Notes under the pieces: generated by a model | What the model was told of the DNA's origin: nothing | The model's input: the letters and a program-made list of their open reading frames with translations, nothing else | Databases searched by the model: none | Translations under genes and position numbers: made by a program | Source of the DNA: Bacilli bacterium | GTDB taxonomy: Bacteria; Bacillota_I; Bacilli_A; RFN20; CAG-826 | Reading direction: 5' to 3' | Assembly (NCBI GenBank): GCA_024695405.1 | Contig: JAILIF010000108.1 | Span: forward strand, 2,970-66,969 | Length of the DNA: 64,000 nucleotides | In this document: positions 27,671 through 59,131 of the stretch, piece after piece | Layout of the letters: each line of letters begins with the position of its first letter | Numbering within the stretch: position 1 is the first letter of the stretch

Positions 27671-27785
27671 TATTTTGCCTCCTAAATGGTGAGATTATTA
27701 TATATCGTAATATTGTATGTTGTCAAAACCAATTATTTATCTATAAAAACTCTTTTAATTATATTAAAATCTTTAGGAAAGATTA

Positions 27786-28069
27786 TGGAAGAAACTAGAA
27801 CAAATAAATACAAGGATTATAGAAAATCTATTTTAAAAGAAGATGCTCCTTCTAATTTTTCTAGTCGCGACGTTCTTTCGGGGAATGATGAAACTACAAC
27901 ATTACCATTTGATCAAGTAATGGATGTAAAAGAAGAGAAAGAAAAGTTCGATTTAATCTTATTTTTTAGAAAACACGCAAAACTTTTTGCAATTATTGCA
28001 ATTGGTATTGGACTTTGCCTATTAATAATTGGTATTATCTTATGGGCTTTAAATGTTTGGAGGGTTTAA
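27786..28069 (+). CDS. Hypothetical small membrane-anchored protein
   Basis: ATG at 27786 with an AGGAAAG Shine-Dalgarno sequence; C-terminal TM helix; 94 aa. Confidence 0.4.
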
Positions 28070-28070
28070 A

Positions 28071-28742
28071 ATGAGAATTTCTGTTGCTATAGATGGACCT
28101 GCAGCTGCTGGTAAATCAACAATCGCTAAAAGAATCGCATCCGATTTAGGATATGTGTATATAGATACTGGAGCAATGTATCGTTGCTTTACATGGTATT
28201 GTTTAGAAAAAGGACTTAACTGTGAAGATGAAAAAGCATGTTCAGCAGTTATTCCAGAAGTATCTATTGATTTAAAACCAGATGGCACAGTTTTATGTAA
28301 TGGAACTGATGTTACTAGAGCAATCAGAGAACCAAGAATCAATGCTAATGTTAGTTATATTGCTACATATAAAGACATTAGATTAGCTATGGTTGACCTC
28401 CAAAGAAAATTAGCTGCTAACTCTAGCGTTATTATGGACGGTAGAGATATTGGAACTTATGTTCTTCCAAAAGCTGAAGTTAAAATCTATCAAGTTGCAT
28501 CTGTAGAAGTTAGGGCAATGAGAAGATATAAAGAAAACATGGAAAAAGGTATCGCATGCACATATGAAGATATCGTTGAAGATGTTAAAAAGAGAGATAG
28601 AATTGACTCAGGTAGAGCATTCGCTCCTTTAAAACCAGCTGAAGATAGTATTGAAGTCGATACTTCAGATATGACTATCGAAGAAGTTGTCGCAAAAATC
28701 ACAGGTATTATTAATAATAAGATTAAGGAATTAAGTAAGTAA
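28071..28742 (+). CDS. cmk: Cytidylate kinase
   Basis: MRISVAIDGPAAAGKST P-loop; GGAGGG Shine-Dalgarno sequence; the track start at 28053 is probably too early. Confidence 0.9.
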   Translation: MRISVAIDGPAAAGKSTIAKRIASDLGYVYIDTGAMYRCFTWYCLEKGLNCEDEKACSAVIPEVSIDLKPDGTVLCNGTDVTRAIREPRINANVSYIATYKDIRLAMVDLQRKLAANSSVIMDGRDIGTYVLPKAEVKIYQVASVEVRAMRRYKENMEKGIACTYEDIVEDVKKRDRIDSGRAFAPLKPAEDSIEVDTSDMTIEEVVAKITGIINNKIKELSK

Positions 28743-53329: not shown

Positions 53330-53350
53330 AAAAAAATGCACAAAGTGCAT
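53330..53350 (-). terminator. Rho-independent terminator for the nfu-tRNA transcript
   Basis: Minus strand: tgcac-tttg-tgca followed by TTTTTTT. Confidence 0.5.
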
Positions 53351-53364
53351 CGTTTAAATTGAAT

Positions 53365-53439
53365 TGGCTGGGGTGACTGGGATCGAACCAGTGAATGGTG
53401 AATTCAGAGTCCACTGCCTTACCGCTTGGCTACACCCCA
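53365..53439 (-). tRNA. tRNA-Gln (anticodon CUG), CCA encoded
   Basis: Reverse complement TGGGGTGTAGCCAAGCGGTAAGGCAGTGGACTCTGAATTCACCATTCACTGGTTCGATCCCAGTCACCCCAGCCA folds as a cloverleaf; the anticodon loop CTCTGAA gives CUG; closely matches Bacillus tRNA-Gln. Confidence 0.9.
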
Positions 53440-53444
53440 AGTAA

Positions 53445-53675
53445 TTATTCGGCTAATTTAACTTCTAAAACACCCGGGACTTCTTCTTGAAGAATAACTT
53501 CAACAAGTCCTTTAATATCTTGATCAGCATACATACAATCCTGGCAAGCACCGTGCATTTTTACATATACTATTCCATCTTTAAAGGAAACAAATTCACA
53601 GTCTCCGCCATCTTTTTGTAAGAAGTGTCTAATTTTATCTAATGTTGAAACAATTAATTTCTCTTCGTCTGTCAT
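53445..53675 (-). CDS. NifU-like (Nfu-type) Fe-S cluster carrier protein
   Basis: 76 aa; CxxC (HGACQDCM) in a NifU C-terminal-domain fold. Confidence 0.8.
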   Translation of the reverse strand: MTDEEKLIVSTLDKIRHFLQKDGGDCEFVSFKDGIVYVKMHGACQDCMYADQDIKGLVEVILQEEVPGVLEVKLAE

Positions 53676-53765: not shown

Positions 53766-54221
53766 ATGGCAGTTAGTTCTAAGAATAAACAACTTCAAAA
53801 GGTAGAAATTGCTATTAGTATTGAAAAGCAACAATACCTATTAGATTACATTCCTTGTTTATGCCAAATTCATGAGAATGAGAAGTTTTCTTATTGTGGG
53901 ATAGGTATTTCAAAACAAGAAATATTGCTTTATTCAGATATGGAACCAAATAGAATAGTGGATAATGTTTATTTTTATAATGCTTTTGCGACCCTTTTAG
54001 TTAAAGAAATTGTCACTTTAGTTAAATCTGAAATAATAAGAAACGAAGAACTACGTAATTATATTAGATTAGACATCTTTATGAAGAACGCCGAAGATAG
54101 CAAAATTATTTATTTTCCAAAATCAGATAAGTTAAAAGTTGCTCGTTTTTTAAGGGCGTGTAAATCGGTTAAGTTAAAAGTAATAAATAACGTTATAAAC
54201 TATAGTTTAGGAACTTACTAG
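53766..54221 (+). CDS. Hypothetical protein
   Basis: 151-aa ORF with no Shine-Dalgarno sequence and no recognisable motif. Confidence 0.3.
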   Translation: MAVSSKNKQLQKVEIAISIEKQQYLLDYIPCLCQIHENEKFSYCGIGISKQEILLYSDMEPNRIVDNVYFYNAFATLLVKEIVTLVKSEIIRNEELRNYIRLDIFMKNAEDSKIIYFPKSDKLKVARFLRACKSVKLKVINNVINYSLGTY

Positions 54222-54243: not shown

Positions 54244-55563
54244 ATGAAACAAAAATTAACAATTGATGAAAAGTTAGCAAAAAGAAAATATAAGACACCT
54301 TCAAACTTAGTGTGGTTTGGTTATAAGATTTTATCTAATTTACCATTCTTTGCGCCTAAGTATCACCCAACATACAAAATTATTGATGATCCAAGAAAAG
54401 AAAAAGGACCATGTTTTATTGTTTGGAACCATCTTTCAAGAAGAGATTATTTATTCTTAAAGAAGATTATTGCACCTAAGAAGTTTAATATGGTTGCTGG
54501 TTATAGCGAATTTTTTAGAAAGAAATTCTTTAACTTATTTAAGTTCTGCAAAATCATTCCAAAGAAGAATTTTACTCAAGACCCAGTAGGCATTAGAGCT
54601 ATTAATAAAGTAATTAAGAGTGGTGGATGTGTAGCATTTTCTCCGGAGGGCATGTCTTCAATATATGGACATAACCAACCTGTAGTTCCAGGAACTGGTA
54701 GATTTTTACAGTTTTATGGGGTACCTGTTTATTTTATGAAACTAGAAGGTGCTTACTTAACTTCACACAAGACAGATATTAAAGATAGAGTGGGTAAAGT
54801 TAACGTAACAATTCAAAAGTTATTTACTCCAGAAGATTTAAAGAAAATGACACCTGATGAAATTCAAGATGTCGTTAACTATACATTTAAACACGATGAT
54901 TACGAATGGAACAAAACTGCTAGAGTTAAATATAAAATCAAAAATAGAGCAGCTTACAATTTAGAAACTATTTGTTATAAGTGCCCAAAGTGCGGCGCTG
55001 AATTAAAAATGGTTGGTTGGGGCAATAAGTTATACTGTGCTGAATGTGGTAATGGTGTAGAAATTGATGAATATTATGATTTCCATTTATTGCATGAAGG
55101 CGACAAAGCACCAGTTTCTCCATCTGCGTGGGTAGATTGGGAACGTACCCAAGTTATTAAAGAAATAAGAGCGGATAAAAATTATTCTTTCTCTTGTGAA
55201 GTAACTATAGGTGAACTTCCTAAATATAAACCAATAAAAGACAATAATGCTTTATCTATTCCTTGTGGTAAAGGAATCGTTACTATTGATCATCAAGGTA
55301 TGCATTTTAATGGTGAAAGACATGGAAAACCATGGCAGTGGAGTCTTGGATATGACATTATTTATTCTCTAGTTATTGAAAATGATACAACGGCAACTTG
55401 CATGTATGTAAATGGAGAATGTATTGAGATAATTCCAAAGCAAAAATGTATTGGTAAGATGTTGCTTTTAGTTGAAGAAATGCATAGATTACATGTGAAC
55501 CTATGGAAGAATTTCCCTTGGTGTGATTACATGTATGAAGGAACTGAACTAGAAAAGAAATAA
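54244..55563 (+). CDS. Lysophospholipid (PlsC-family) acyltransferase with a C-terminal zinc-ribbon-containing domain
   Basis: HX4D motif VWNHLSRRD plus a PEGM-like SPEGMSS block; the C-terminal half has CYKCPKCG...CAECG; 439 aa. Confidence 0.65.
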   Translation: MKQKLTIDEKLAKRKYKTPSNLVWFGYKILSNLPFFAPKYHPTYKIIDDPRKEKGPCFIVWNHLSRRDYLFLKKIIAPKKFNMVAGYSEFFRKKFFNLFKFCKIIPKKNFTQDPVGIRAINKVIKSGGCVAFSPEGMSSIYGHNQPVVPGTGRFLQFYGVPVYFMKLEGAYLTSHKTDIKDRVGKVNVTIQKLFTPEDLKKMTPDEIQDVVNYTFKHDDYEWNKTARVKYKIKNRAAYNLETICYKCPKCGAELKMVGWGNKLYCAECGNGVEIDEYYDFHLLHEGDKAPVSPSAWVDWERTQVIKEIRADKNYSFSCEVTIGELPKYKPIKDNNALSIPCGKGIVTIDHQGMHFNGERHGKPWQWSLGYDIIYSLVIENDTTATCMYVNGECIEIIPKQKCIGKMLLLVEEMHRLHVNLWKNFPWCDYMYEGTELEKK

Positions 55564-55669
55564 GGAAGGATTAATAGTCCTTCTTTTTAACAATATGCAA
55601 AATTTGCATTTTTTATTGTGAGAAATATTTTAGATTAATATAATAATATTATTGGCGAGGGAATTTATA

Positions 55670-56863
55670 ATGAATTTAAAAGAAACACGCAAAAAATGCA
55701 AATTAACTCAAGAAGAAGCATCTAAAATTGTTGGCGTTCCACTCAGAACATATGTTCAATATGAAGGCGACGAAACAAAAGCAGATACTTTAAAACTTGA
55801 AAGAATGATTGAAAGATTAGAAGAATACGCAAGCAAAGATACTTCTATTCTTAAAGACAAAGTCTTATTAATTACTGGTGGTACAGGTTCATTCGGCCAT
55901 GCAGTTGTTGATAGATTTCTAGATACTGAAATTAAAGAAATCAGAATTCTTTCTCGTGACGAAAAGAAACAAGACGACATGAGAAAGTACTATAACAATG
56001 AGAAATTAAAATTCTACATTGGTGATATTAGAAACTATGATTCTATTGTTGATGCTTTTAAAGGCGTTGACTATGTTTTCTCCGCAGCTGCTTTAAAGCA
56101 AGTTCCATCTTGTGAATTCTATCCAATGGAAGCTGTAAGAACTAACGTCATCGGTAGTGATAATGTAATTACTGCTTGCGTTAGAAATGGTGTTAAAAAA
56201 GCTATCTTCTTATCTACTGATAAAGCAGCATATCCAATTAACGCTATGGGTATTTCTAAAGCTTTAATGGAGAAGAATGTTATTGCTAGAAGTAGACAAC
56301 TTTTACCAGGAGATACAGTTTTATGTTTAACTCGTTATGGTAATGTTATGGCTTCTAGAGGTAGTGTTATCCCTCTTTTCTTAAATCAAATTCATGATGG
56401 TAAGCCAATTACTATTACTAATCCAGAAATGACTAGATTCATGATGACTCTTGATGACGCTGTTGATTTAGTCTTATATGCTTTTGAAAATGGTGAACAA
56501 GGTGATTTATTCGTTCAAAAGGCACCTGCTGCAACAATTGAAACATTAGCTCAAGCAGTTATCGAATTAACAAATAGTAAAACAGGTATTGATTATATCG
56601 GTACTAGACATGGTGAAAAACTCTACGAAACTTTAGTCACTCAAGAAGAAATGATTAGAGCAGTTGATTGTGGCAATTTCTATAGAATTGTCGCTGATAA
56701 TAGAGATTTAAACTACGACAAATACTTCTCAAAAGGTAACAAAAAATTAAACTTCTCAGAATCTTATACATCACATAATACTGGTAGACTTGATGTTGAG
56801 GGTATGAAAAAACTTCTCAAAAAGTTAGAATTATTTGGTGGGGAAGTTAGACAACATGATTAA
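55670..56863 (+). CDS. fnlA: UDP-N-acetylglucosamine 4,6-dehydratase/5-epimerase (FnlA/CapE) with N-terminal XRE-type HTH
   Basis: ATG 55670 is 8 nt after GAGGG (the track TTG at 55652 is unlikely). Residues 1-50 read LKETRKKCKLTQEEASKIVGVPLRTYVQYEG, an XRE helix-turn-helix. The remainder aligns with CapE from KVLLITGGTGSFG onward. Confidence 0.8.
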   Translation: MNLKETRKKCKLTQEEASKIVGVPLRTYVQYEGDETKADTLKLERMIERLEEYASKDTSILKDKVLLITGGTGSFGHAVVDRFLDTEIKEIRILSRDEKKQDDMRKYYNNEKLKFYIGDIRNYDSIVDAFKGVDYVFSAAALKQVPSCEFYPMEAVRTNVIGSDNVITACVRNGVKKAIFLSTDKAAYPINAMGISKALMEKNVIARSRQLLPGDTVLCLTRYGNVMASRGSVIPLFLNQIHDGKPITITNPEMTRFMMTLDDAVDLVLYAFENGEQGDLFVQKAPAATIETLAQAVIELTNSKTGIDYIGTRHGEKLYETLVTQEEMIRAVDCGNFYRIVADNRDLNYDKYFSKGNKKLNFSESYTSHNTGRLDVEGMKKLLKKLELFGGEVRQHD

Positions 56864-57959
56864 AAACATACTTGTTACTGGCGCGAACGGTTTTATAGGG
56901 AAACATGTGTCCCTTAAGCTTGAAAGAGCTGGATATAATATTTTCAAGTACGACTTGGATAATACTGAAGAAGAATTAGTTAACTATGTTAAAAAAGCAG
57001 ACTATTTAGTTCATCTTGCAGGAATTAATAGACCAATGAGTGTTGAAGAGTTTTATGATGGAAATTCAAACTTTACAAAAAAACTCATTGATTTACTTAA
57101 GGATAATGGAAAAAACATTCCAGTCATTTTCTCAAGTTCAATTCAAGCTGCTTTAGACAATGATTACGGAAAAAGCAAAAAGATGGCTGAAGACTATTTG
57201 TTAGATTGTGGTCTTCCAGTTAATGTTTTCCGCCTTGCTAATGTTTTTGGAAAGTGGTGTAGACCAAACTATAACAGCGCTGCAGCAACTTTCTGTTATA
57301 ACATTGCTCATGATTTAGAAATTACAATTAGAGATCCTAATTATGTTGTTCATTTCAACTATGTTGATGATATCGTTAATGAATTTATTAACTGCATCAA
57401 AAATGGAACATCATCAAAAGATATTTTATATGTTCAGCCAACACATGATTGTTCATTGGGAAAGCTTGCTGATTTACTTTATTACTTCAAAAAAGAAATC
57501 GAAAGCGATAGGCACTTGCCTATTCTTCATGATGAATTTGAACTTAAACTATTTAAAACATTCTGTGATTATTTAAGCGAGGATGGATATTCATTTAATT
57601 ATGCCGCTGATGCTCGTGGTAGTTTTGAAGAATTATATAAGTCAAAGAAGTGGGGACAAATTTCTGAAAATATTTCTTTCCCTCACATTATTAAAGGTGG
57701 ACATTATCACACTTACAAAAAAGAAATCTTTTACACTGTCAAAGGTAAATGTGAAATTAAACAAAGAAATGTTAAATCCGATGAGATGTTAGTTGATGTT
57801 GTCGATGGGAAAGATGGAAAGATGGTAGACATTATTCCTATGTACACTCATTCAATTGAAAACATTGGTGAAACTAATTCTCATACAATTATGTGGATTA
57901 GTGAAATTTATGATGAAAAAACTGCAGATACTTATAGAGAACCTGTTGTGAAGGAGTAG
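56856..57959 (+). CDS. fnlB: UDP-2-acetamido-2,6-dideoxy-L-talose 2-epimerase/reductase (FnlB/CapF)
   Basis: MIKNILVTGANGFIGKH Rossmann N-terminus plus a C-terminal cupin domain; the track start at 56835 is probably early. Confidence 0.75.
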   Translation: MIKNILVTGANGFIGKHVSLKLERAGYNIFKYDLDNTEEELVNYVKKADYLVHLAGINRPMSVEEFYDGNSNFTKKLIDLLKDNGKNIPVIFSSSIQAALDNDYGKSKKMAEDYLLDCGLPVNVFRLANVFGKWCRPNYNSAAATFCYNIAHDLEITIRDPNYVVHFNYVDDIVNEFINCIKNGTSSKDILYVQPTHDCSLGKLADLLYYFKKEIESDRHLPILHDEFELKLFKTFCDYLSEDGYSFNYAADARGSFEELYKSKKWGQISENISFPHIIKGGHYHTYKKEIFYTVKGKCEIKQRNVKSDEMLVDVVDGKDGKMVDIIPMYTHSIENIGETNSHTIMWISEIYDEKTADTYREPVVKE

Positions 57960-57962
57960 CAA

Positions 57963-59087
57963 ATGAAAAAGAAAATTAAAGTAGTTACTATTGTTGGGAC
58001 TAGACCAGAAATTATTAGACTTTCTGAAGTAATTAAAGCTTTAGACAAAGATAATGAAATCGAGCATATTTTGGTACATACAGGACAAAATTGGGCTTAT
58101 GAATTAAATCAAGTCTTCTTTGAAGAATTAGAATTAAGAGCACCAGATTACTATCTTGATTGTGTTGGCAATGATTTGGGCGAAACTATTGGTAACGCTA
58201 TTTCAAAATCATACAAATTATTAGGTGAATTAAAACCTGATGCAGTCTTGATTTTAGGCGACACAAATAGTGCTCTTTGTGCTATTTCTGCAAAAAGACT
58301 TAAGCTCCCAATCTTCCATATGGAAGCAGGTAATAGATGTGGTGACTGGAACGTTCCAGAAACAATTAATAGAAAGATTGTTGATCACATTTCCGATATC
58401 AATCTCCCATACACAGAACACGCTTATGCTAACTTAATGAAGGAAGGCATTGAAATGGAATATACATTCATCACCGGTTCTCCAATGTTGGAAGTTTTAA
58501 ACGCTAATAACGATAAAATTGAAGCATCAAAAGTTCTTGAAGATATGGGCCTTGAAAAAGGCAAATACATCGTTGTATCTTCTCATAGAGAAGAAAACAT
58601 CGATATTAAGAAGAATTTTGATCAACTTATGCCTGCACTTAATGACATCGCAGAAAAGTATCAAGTCCCTGTTATTTTCTCAACTCACCCAAGAACACAA
58701 AAAAGATTCGATGCTAATGGTTTTAAACCACATCCATTAATCCGTAATTTAAAACCATTAGGTTTCCTTGAATATGTAAAACTTCAAGAAAACGCTATGT
58801 TTGTTCTTTCTGATAGTGGCACCCTTACTGAAGAAAGTGCTATGAGAAAATTCCCTGCAGTTTTAATTAGAACATCTACCGAAAGACCAGAAGGTGTTGA
58901 AGCAGGTTCAATCATTGTTTCAGGTATTGATAGACAAGGAATTATGCTTGCAATCGATACTGAATTGATGCGTTATAAATTCGCAAAAACTCCTGAAAAT
59001 TACGATGTTACAAATGTTTCCGAAAGAGTTGTTAAAATCATCAAAGAAAAAATTGATGTTGTCAACAAAGAGATTTGGAAGAAATAA
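57963..59087 (+). CDS. fnlC: UDP-N-acetylglucosamine 2-epimerase, non-hydrolysing (FnlC/CapG/WecB)
   Basis: VVTIVGTRPEIIRL...HTGQN; 374 aa. Confidence 0.85.
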   Translation: MKKKIKVVTIVGTRPEIIRLSEVIKALDKDNEIEHILVHTGQNWAYELNQVFFEELELRAPDYYLDCVGNDLGETIGNAISKSYKLLGELKPDAVLILGDTNSALCAISAKRLKLPIFHMEAGNRCGDWNVPETINRKIVDHISDINLPYTEHAYANLMKEGIEMEYTFITGSPMLEVLNANNDKIEASKVLEDMGLEKGKYIVVSSHREENIDIKKNFDQLMPALNDIAEKYQVPVIFSTHPRTQKRFDANGFKPHPLIRNLKPLGFLEYVKLQENAMFVLSDSGTLTEESAMRKFPAVLIRTSTERPEGVEAGSIIVSGIDRQGIMLAIDTELMRYKFAKTPENYDVTNVSERVVKIIKEKIDVVNKEIWKK

Positions 59088-59104
59088 AAACAAAAATGCA
59101 ATTA

Positions 59105-59131
59105 GGCCCTTCTTTGAAGGGCTTTTCATTT
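59105..59131 (+). terminator. Rho-independent terminator
   Basis: gcccttc-ttt-gaagggc followed by TTTTCATTTT. Confidence 0.65.

Follow-up and report, generated by a model that had tools for sequence, protein, structure and literature searches.

Can an enzyme of nucleotide-sugar biosynthesis that carries a DNA-binding domain at its N-terminus control the operon in which it is encoded? This question is raised by a gene at positions 55670-56863 of a window of 64,000 nucleotides (nt) from the genome of a Bacilli bacterium (GenBank assembly GCA_024695405.1, contig JAILIF010000108.1, positions 2,970 to 66,969), which is the whole stretch of DNA analysed here and to which all coordinates refer. A first-pass annotation had noticed that an XRE-family helix-turn-helix (HTH) is fused to the FnlA/CapE-type UDP-GlcNAc 4,6-dehydratase encoded by this gene, and had proposed either a DNA-binding enzyme that autoregulates the fnlABC locus or a gene-fusion artefact. 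The first proposal gains support from our comparison of sequences, in which conserved palindromes co-occur with the HTH subtype of the fusion. We consider it likely that the product is a bifunctional trigger enzyme which binds two operator-like sites, O1 and O2, and represses its own fnlABC genes, probably by looping of the DNA.

The open reading frame (ORF) and the peptide quoted for it were found exactly as described earlier. The longest frame (55652-56863) opens on TTG 55652, but this codon is implausible as a start; because it precedes the GAGGG Shine-Dalgarno sequence, ATG 55670 is the credible start, which bears out the original assignment (Table 1). The N-terminal extension is present, although it comprises about 60 residues rather than the 55 reported initially. 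The Pfam profile HTH_3 (PF01381), with a gathering cut-off of 23 bits, matched residues 3-50, scoring 26.2 bits when the whole protein was searched and 30.6 bits for residues 1-65 alone, which confirms the XRE-type HTH. Lower-scoring matches of the same region were obtained with HTH_19, MqsA_antitoxin and Xre-like-HTH, and every match to the named HTH subfamilies of NCBIfam stayed far under its cut-off. An AlphaFold (AF2) model of residues 1-64 with a predicted local distance difference test score (pLDDT) of 83 showed helices at residues 3-9, 14-21, 25-33 and 40-56. Its best Foldseek matches in the PDB were HipB, controller proteins of restriction-modification (R-M) systems (C.Kpn2I), HigA2, P22 c2 and 434 Cro, with template modelling (TM) scores of 0.6-0.68 and root-mean-square deviations of 1.4-2.3 Å over about 50 residues; owing to the short length of the domain, the E-values were weak (0.13 or higher). 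According to the model, the fold is of the XRE-like lambda-repressor type with a helix 2-turn-helix 3 arrangement. In the predicted recognition helix, L25, R26, Y31 and E32 are invariant in an alignment of six sequences, while R26, Y31 and E32 are invariant and L25 almost so in an alignment of 23. The usual fifth helix of XRE domains is merged in the model into a single long helix (alpha4; pLDDT about 80-89, with about 66 for the linker behind it), whose motif ADQLKLxRIKExLEEYA is kept in both clades of fusion proteins described below. An identical protein is deposited at NCBI as 'MAG: polysaccharide biosynthesis protein [Bacilli bacterium]' (MAG, metagenome-assembled genome), with the HTH unmentioned.

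The remainder of the protein is an FnlA-type enzyme. Residues 61-388 matched the FnlA model TIGR04130 with 536.5 bits, which does not reach the equivalog cut-off of 730; FnlA is still by far the best model, PseB scoring 306 bits, and matches to Polysacc_synt_2 (337 bits) and Polysacc_syn_2C (78 bits) indicated a complete catalytic domain. The structures of FnlA/WbjB (4J2O) and CapE (3VVB) align only from residue 59-62 on, and the approximately 60 N-terminal residues are therefore extra. Residues 59-389 are 64% identical to WbjB of A. baumannii (4J2O), and a full-length AlphaFold model (pLDDT 80, monomer) superimposes on that structure with a TM score of 0.93 through its enzyme part only. When the whole model was searched with Foldseek, the enzyme part alone was recovered and no solved structure with both domains was found. 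The catalytic residues of CapE are Asp125, Lys126, Met134, which replaces the Tyr of short-chain dehydrogenases/reductases (SDR), and Glu257 (PMC3699295). By alignment offset they correspond to D184, K185, M193 and E316 of the fusion, and these four residues and K197 are invariant in an alignment of 53 sequences. Judged by its sequence, the enzyme part is equipped with intact catalytic residues and is no dead sensor domain. From the identity and the TM score to 4J2O, catalytic activity would be expected, as would assembly into a hexamer such as that of CapE, which forms a stable trimer of dimers (PMC3699295).

The fusion recurs widely. All 120 best-scoring clusters at 90% identity (85-100% identical to the window's protein) carry the N-terminal extension, nearly all of them with exactly 397 amino acids and most with a precomputed HTH_3 match. 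A second fusion clade at 62% identity has about 90 further clusters, and altogether the fusion is present in over 200 protein clusters that stem from independent assemblies. When GTDB was scanned with each species represented by one genome, only five of the best 80 fnlA loci encoded the fusion, namely L001-L004 (87-89% identity) and L011 (62%), all from gut or rumen MAGs labelled as Bacilli or Erysipelotrichaceae, while all other fnlA genes among these 80 start at about 'MFKDKVLLITGG'. A search of representative sequences, in which full-length fusions fall into clusters represented by unfused FnlA, returned mostly fragments for that reason and is unusable for counting fusion families, and a metagenome scan with the N-terminal alignment, which was swamped by a DEKKQDD pattern, gave only four new fusion loci. 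Within the fusion, the start MFKDK of unfused FnlA has changed to SILKDK, its Met codon now being ATT (Ile60). The only other in-frame Met ahead of the enzyme, Met46, is Ile in L003, L004 and L011, and L004 contains no Met at all between residue 1 and the Rossmann motif. The enzyme can therefore not be made without the HTH. Where dS was measurable, pairwise ratios of nonsynonymous to synonymous substitution rates (dN/dS) were 0.04-0.5 for codons 1-50 versus 0.02-0.075 for the enzyme; by this measure the HTH is under purifying selection, albeit less tight than the enzyme.

Many independent assemblies, the lost start codon and purifying selection exclude the gene-fusion artefact that had been left as an option. 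More broadly, the fusion might reflect faulty annotation or assembly, or the enzyme might be translated from an internal start without the HTH, as could be argued from a weak promoter-like match (9/12) within the HTH-coding segment (55797-55826), from the in-frame ATG of Met46 and from some database entries that open at 'MLKDKVLLITGG'. We consider this hardly credible, since the same unbroken frame recurs in hundreds of independent assemblies, dN/dS is below 1 throughout the segment, and the Met codon of unfused FnlA is lost. The internal promoter and the Met46 start were rejected, Met46 being unconserved and no start codon preceding the Rossmann motif. An entry of the kind mentioned, P0173 (344 amino acids, 'MLKDKVLLITGG…'), places its initial M exactly on the linker Ile codon and is probably a truncation by the gene caller. 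A further database protein, P0225 (Bacteroides sp. CAG:545, 420 amino acids), contains two internal duplicated segments and looks like an assembly artefact.

The only good sigma-70-like promoter match, a consensus prediction, lies upstream of the HTH-coding segment and has the palindrome O1 beside it. O1 lies upstream of the predicted -35 box, at a distance of 6 nt when taken as a 15-mer and of 7 nt when taken as the 13-nt core, and in 10 of 13 loci the end of the core is separated from the best -35 hexamer by 7-8 nt. Some version of O1 is present at every fusion locus listed for it in Table 1. The pattern TGCA-N5-TGCA was found within 200 nt upstream at seven of nine other fusion loci and with one mismatch at the remaining two, but at none of 144 loci with unfused fnlA. 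In an alignment of the 100 nt upstream of ten loci, invariance outside the ATG is confined to columns of the palindrome (G, A, TTGC, T); the synonymous sites of the fusion genes are near or past saturation.

O2 lies within the first codons of the gene, on the far side of promoter, ribosome-binding site and start codon relative to O1, at a centre-to-centre distance of 92 bp in the window and 86-92 bp in its relatives. Its core in the window, GCAAAAAATGC at 55689-55699, deviates by one mismatch. In L001-L004 and L081 of the window's clade, codons 7-10 (R-K-N/K-C) read CGC AAA AAT TGC and thereby form a perfect GCAAAAATTGC. Arg7 is encoded by CGC in nine of nine members of this clade, a codon which accounts for 12 of the 306 Arg codons (4%) in 17 genes of the window, where AGA is used 230 times. 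All 15 other invariant Arg columns vary among two to four synonymous codons in the seven gaplessly alignable sequences; Cys10 is TGC in seven of seven, while both TGT and TGC are used in the three other columns with an invariant Cys. Judged by this codon choice, O2 is under selection at the nucleotide level. In the clade of L011, Arg7 is encoded by AGA or AGG and O2 is absent; instead, L165, L166 and L167, and outside this clade also L083, have two upstream sites 63-98 bp apart, and the proximal site of L165 overlaps the likely transcription start.

The palindrome also accompanies this HTH onto other proteins. An exhaustive search with residues 1-80 against 1.84 billion representatives revealed N-terminal HTHs of this subtype, with 45-60% identity over about 57 residues, on several other proteins, among them proteins of the UDP-glucose dehydrogenase family, Polbeta/NTP_transf_2 nucleotidyltransferases, large proteins that end in a MarR domain, and more distant Polysacc_synt_2 proteins, and palindromes were present at several of these genes (Table 1). 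Taking all upstream windows of 150 nt at HTH-bearing genes together, strict GCAA-N3-TTGC occurs in 10 of 20 and a version with at most one mismatch in 17 of 20, against expectations of 0.014 and 0.116 per window that were derived from the remaining sequence of these loci. Most of the palindromes are positioned between -56 and -75. Because the HTH is the only feature common to these genes, which have four unrelated C-terminal partners, we regard this distribution as the strongest argument that the HTH itself would read the palindrome. At the UDP-glucose dehydrogenase-type locus L161, the contig bears another HTH gene about 1 kb further downstream, which contains an internal GCAAAAATTGC as well. 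A single genome can therefore encode several sugar-nucleotide enzymes that are tagged with this HTH and differ slightly in their operators. In the FnlA fusion of L167 (P0211), the N-terminal domain is decayed and shortened (MTLLALRNKRGLSQKAEDELTHAPLKKNVSYEKDDVDQLKFDDGD…) with an intact enzyme behind it, and both upstream sites (ATGCAAAAATTACAT and TGCAGTTATTGCT) contain a mismatch; regulator and operator may be decaying together at this locus.

We propose the following mechanism. A single polypeptide would combine the N-terminal XRE/Cro-type HTH with a catalytically intact FnlA/CapE UDP-GlcNAc 4,6-dehydratase/5-epimerase, whose hexamer, as in CapE, would supply the oligomerisation that a small HTH needs for binding a palindrome. 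This hexamer would display several copies of the HTH, a domain of about 60 residues that lacks the usual dimerising fifth helix and is tethered through the conserved long helix, and pairs of HTHs would bind the two copies of GCAA-N3-TTGC that bracket promoter and start codon, or the two upstream sites in the other clade. O1 would be bound just upstream of the -35 box, its centre about -50 from the predicted transcription start, and O2 about 92 bp away. With both sites occupied, the promoter between them would probably be looped and transcription of fnlA-fnlB-fnlC repressed, so that the amount of enzyme would limit its own synthesis. By analogy to BirA, PutA and RbkR, the nucleotide-sugar or NADP(H) state of the catalytic domain may tune DNA binding. 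Palindrome binding by the fusion protein, repression over activation, looping and ligand control are what we infer here. We prefer repression because the relatives in structure and among fusion partners are autorepressors, because a second site lies at or downstream of the start region, and because negative feedback by the amount of enzyme is physiologically sensible.

Several points weigh against this interpretation. The position of O1 near -50 is more typical of activators, the window's own O2 carries a mismatch, and the spacing between O1 and O2 ranges from 86 to 92 bp and leaves the helical phase unfixed. Promoter and transcription start are consensus predictions, and the support is computational throughout. 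The Rossmann domains of CapE are located at the centre of the hexamer (PMC3699295), and two N-terminal HTHs may not be able to meet on one palindrome. Hairpins with a TGCA stem and a T-run serve as terminator-like elements in this genome (tRNA-Gln, 53336-53350), and T-runs follow several O1 copies. The fusion loci are related by descent, so that the counts overstate their independence; the contexts other than FnlA amount to five loci only, and no such site was found at two distant fusions, L168 and L163.

If the HTH-enzyme binds at about -50 beside the -35 box, it could also recruit RNA polymerase and activate the operon, in the manner of lambda cI at PRM or of class I/II activators. O1 would be suitably placed for this, overlapping neither the -35 nor the -10 box, and at many loci the predicted -35 box matches the consensus poorly (TTGTGA, TTTACT, TTTAAT), as expected of activator-dependent promoters. 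However, HipB, HigA, C-proteins, phage repressors and the antitoxin-like nucleotidyltransferase partners are typically autorepressors, an O2 past the start codon or the L165 site on the likely transcription start fits repression or looping better, and positive autoregulation by the enzyme's own amount has no obvious logic; we therefore judge activation unlikely, though it deserves more credit than the explanations that follow. One of these takes the HTH as a structural or vestigial appendage, serving for oligomerisation or as a solubility tag and not binding DNA, with a separate factor reading the palindromes. It would account for a dN/dS of the HTH several-fold above that of the enzyme, for HTH_3 scores under the precomputed Pfam threshold in many members of the L011 clade, for the visibly decayed HTH on the intact enzyme P0211, and for close unfused relatives (92% identity, P0208) which evidently work without an HTH. 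It leaves unexplained that the palindrome tracks the HTH subtype over four unrelated C-terminal partners, that R26 of the recognition helix is invariant and L25 nearly so, and that the decayed HTH is paired with decayed sites, and we hold it to be improbable.

The palindromes might further be RNA or DNA hairpins without any protein partner, with O1 acting as a weak terminator or insulator and the codon bias of O2 stemming from mRNA structure or translation initiation. Several O1 copies are indeed followed by TTTTTCTTT, the L003 copy folds at -8.5 kcal/mol (z = -3.0), a similar hairpin terminates the tRNA-Gln gene, the palindrome of L161 is the sole terminator-like element past the upstream gene, and G-U wobble could maintain pairing in TGCAG...TTGCA variants. 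We folded six of the hairpins and rejected O1 as a terminator, keeping this function as a minor rival: as RNA, the window copy reaches -3.7 kcal/mol (z = -0.24), which is no better than shuffled sequences, and it is not needed as a terminator because a proper one (55562-55586; -10.8 kcal/mol, z = -3.8) lies 9 nt upstream. A simple terminator is disfavoured in general by this weak fold, by the separate strong terminators upstream of O1 in at least five loci and by the copies of L011 (-2.9 kcal/mol) and L165, which have no T-run. Moreover, terminators conserve structure and not sequence, whereas TTGC is invariant here and the outer bases are often unpaired (T..C, A..C, T..T); in RNA, the TGCAA...CTGCA of L165 would place an A opposite a C, O1 precedes the predicted transcription start and would thus be missing from the fnlA mRNA, and O2 alone forms a stem of only about 3 bp. 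Hairpins without a protein partner are thus very doubtful, and repression by the HTH-enzyme remains our preferred reading.

The enzyme of the L011 clade is 62% identical to that of the window but 92% to an unfused FnlA (P0208), and the enzymes of L011, L165, L166 and L167 are 88-96% identical to unfused FnlA proteins of 344-346 amino acids from other gut MAGs. The gene order in this second clade is fnlA-fnlC-fnlB instead of fnlA-fnlB-fnlC as in the window, while the HTH heads of both clades are clearly homologous. As read from these sequences, it seems that the catalytic cassette was exchanged behind a retained promoter-operator-HTH head, or that the head was transferred. Such an exchange, together with the occurrence of the head on other partners, suggests a portable autoregulatory module. 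A wider version of this idea, to which we give limited credence, is that XRE HTH, promoter and GCAA-N3-TTGC form a self-regulating head, which in Firmicutes of gut and rumen has been grafted onto proteins as unrelated as FnlA, UDP-glucose dehydrogenase, nucleotidyltransferases and those of MarR type, that it makes FnlA a looping repressor, which binds one operator at the promoter and a second within its own first codons with an affinity set by the UDP-sugar/NADP state of the active site, and that it has been kept despite recombinational replacement of the cassette. If this were true, the fusion would show for the first time that an SDR sugar-nucleotide enzyme can serve as the basis of a transcription factor that senses metabolites.

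The features of the locus and the sites at related loci are collected in Table 1. Because terminators are present on both sides, fnlABC represents an insulated three-gene cassette; the flanking genes (ychF, ispF, argS, PFOR) are of housekeeping type. An Rfam scan of 55300-56000 returned nothing credible, the sole match being a lncRNA model with E = 0.45. The product of the upstream acyltransferase gene contains a zinc-ribbon-like CxxC…CxxC insert (CPKCGAELKMVGWGNKLYCAECG), and the ORF preceding this gene (53766-54221, 151 amino acids) matches no Pfam family. No glycosyltransferase able to use UDP-L-FucNAc adjoins fnlABC.

Table 1. Positions of the fusion gene, its domains, candidate sites and neighbours in the window, and candidate sites at related loci.
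Feature	Position	Strand	Basis or sequence
HTH-FnlA fusion gene, 397 amino acids	55670..56863	+	Credible start ATG 55670; translation opens MNLKETRKKCKLTQEEASKIVGVPLRTYVQYEGDE
Shine-Dalgarno sequence GAGGG	55657..55661	+	Direct sequence reading; 8 nt to ATG
XRE-type HTH domain, residues 3-50	55676..55819	+	Pfam HTH_3 profile
Predicted recognition helix, residues 25-33	55742..55768	+	AF2 helices
Long helix alpha4 (residues 40-56) and short linker to Rossmann strand beta1	55787..55855	+	AF2
FnlA/CapE catalytic domain, residues 63-388	55856..56833	+	Pfam/NCBIfam profiles
O1, candidate operator	55595..55609	.	ATGCAAAATTTGCAT; core GCAA-N3-TTGC, 55597-55607
O2, operator-like site in codons 7-10 (R-K-K-C)	55688..55700	.	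CGCAAAAAATGCA; one mismatch from GCAA-N3-TTGC
Predicted sigma-70-type promoter	55616..55644	+	TTGTGA-17-TATAAT; 10/12 consensus match
O1 of L001 / L002			ATGAAATATTTGCA(C/T), one-mismatch form
O1 of L003			GTGCAGAATTTGCAC
O1 of L004			GTGCAGTGATTGCAC
O1 of L011			TTGCAAGATTTGCAT
O1 of L081			GTGCAAAATTTGCAC
O1 of L082			GTGCAGTAATTGCAC
O1 of L083			TTGCAATTTTTGCAC
O1 of L084			ATGCAAAGATTGCAC
Site upstream of nucleotidyltransferase fusion, L171	-66		GTGCAAAAGTTGCAC; past a separate terminator
Sites upstream of nucleotidyltransferase fusion, L172			CGCAATTATTGCG, two copies
Site upstream of MarR-type fusion, L170			ATGCAATATTTGCT
Site upstream of MarR-type fusion, L173			GCAATTCTTGC
Ugd fusion of L161 (P0357, UDP-glucose/GDP-mannose dehydrogenase family)	239-1498 of L161		Symmetric variant GTGCCAATTTGGCAC
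Start of another HTH gene at the 3' end of L161	from about 2448 of L161		MTLKETRKNCKL…; own site ATGCAATTTTTGCAC
Upstream acyltransferase gene, 439 amino acids	54244..55563	+	Only weak Acyltransferase (PF01553) match
Intrinsic terminator of acyltransferase gene	55562..55586	+	Inverted repeat AAGGAAGGATTA/TAGTCCTTCTTT, then T-run
fnlB-like reductase	56856..57959	+	Epimerase and Polysacc_synt_C domains; start overlaps fnlA end by 8 nt
fnlC-like UDP-GlcNAc 2-epimerase	57963..59087	+	Epimerase_2, 295 bits
Operon-closing terminator	59104..59124	+	9-bp stem with 5 GC pairs, T-rich tail

In the window as a whole, TGCA-N5-TGCA and GCAA-N3-TTGC occur with five copies each, compared with about 1.2-1.3 expected. 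All copies besides O1 lie inside ORFs or in a tRNA terminator, only the one at 27988 is O1-like in its layout, and we claim no regulon from these counts. The latter site (27988-28000) is a perfect TGCAATTATTGCA with the core GCAA-N3-TTGC and lies within the 3' end of ORF 27686-28069, 65 nt upstream of the ATG of ORF 28053-28742, which we take to be cytidylate-kinase-like from its MRISVAIDGP start alone. A TTGGAC hexamer follows 7 nt past the site, in the same layout as at the O1 of fnlA; the site could be a second target or a chance occurrence. The copy in the tRNA terminator belongs to a tRNA-Gln gene (CTG) on the minus strand (53365-53439), which is followed at 53336-53350 by the hairpin ATGCAC-TTT-GTGCAT and a T-run (-6.9 kcal/mol, z = -3.3). 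It matches TGCA-N5-TGCA by an accident of its stem, which calls for caution with motif counts. Upstream of this tRNA gene, in what appears as an intergenic gap of the plus strand, there is a small unlisted ORF of about 75 amino acids on the minus strand (53448-53674), presumably for a NifU-like Fe-S scaffold domain as read by eye (…HGACQDC…).

Searches of the literature for FnlA/CapE with HTH or XRE, for the domain pairs, and for trigger enzymes together with polysaccharides yielded no description of the fusion, and no example was found of a nucleotide-sugar SDR enzyme that binds DNA. The sequences are already public under a generic name. The annotation 'polysaccharide biosynthesis protein' conceals the DNA-binding domain, and some gene callers truncate the protein at a non-existent start. 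To our knowledge, no regulators are known for surface-polysaccharide operons in uncultured gut or rumen Bacilli, and the locus offers a concrete circuit of one protein, two sites of 11-13 bp and one promoter. If our interpretation is true, the nucleotide-sugar SDR enzymes would join the short list of trigger enzymes, O2 would exemplify in nature how the choice of rare codons can maintain an operator within a coding sequence, and HTH and operator together would form a finished autoregulatory module that can pass from one enzyme to another.

A DNA-binding domain and an intact pathway enzyme are likewise joined in one polypeptide in BirA (biotin ligase with a winged HTH), NadR, PutA (a ribbon-helix-helix (RHH) domain with proline dehydrogenase) and RbkR, an archaeal riboflavin kinase with an HTH (PMC5397151). 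The fusion would resemble these trigger enzymes in the operator-like palindromes at the promoter of its own pathway and in the logic of a self-limiting biosynthesis. It differs in its fold, which is of the XRE/Cro-C1 type and not a winged HTH or RHH, and in its enzyme, an extended-SDR nucleotide-sugar dehydratase/epimerase. The hallmark of BirA and PutA, a link of catalysis or ligand state to DNA binding, may apply to the fusion by analogy. With FnlA, WbjB and CapE (Cap5E/Cap8E), the fusion shares the Thr-Asp-Lys...Met...Lys...Glu pattern and the adjoining fnlB-like and fnlC-like genes, but in contrast to them it has the HTH extension of about 60 residues and has lost the usual start codon. 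With the type II antitoxins HipB, HigA and MqsA, C proteins of R-M systems and phage Cro/CI, it shares the fold. These regulators act on short palindromes in their own promoters, often on two of them, as the fusion would, and the same HTH subtype on antitoxin-like nucleotidyltransferases with the same palindrome provides a link to antitoxins. Small XRE autoregulators dimerise via their own C-terminal helix or a partner toxin, whereas the fusion would presumably do so via the hexameric enzyme. The eps clusters of Lactococcus and Lactobacillus are headed by EpsR-type XRE regulators. There too, a polysaccharide locus of Bacilli opens with a small XRE HTH regulator, but EpsR is a separate product, whereas in the fusion the HTH is covalently joined to the first enzyme.

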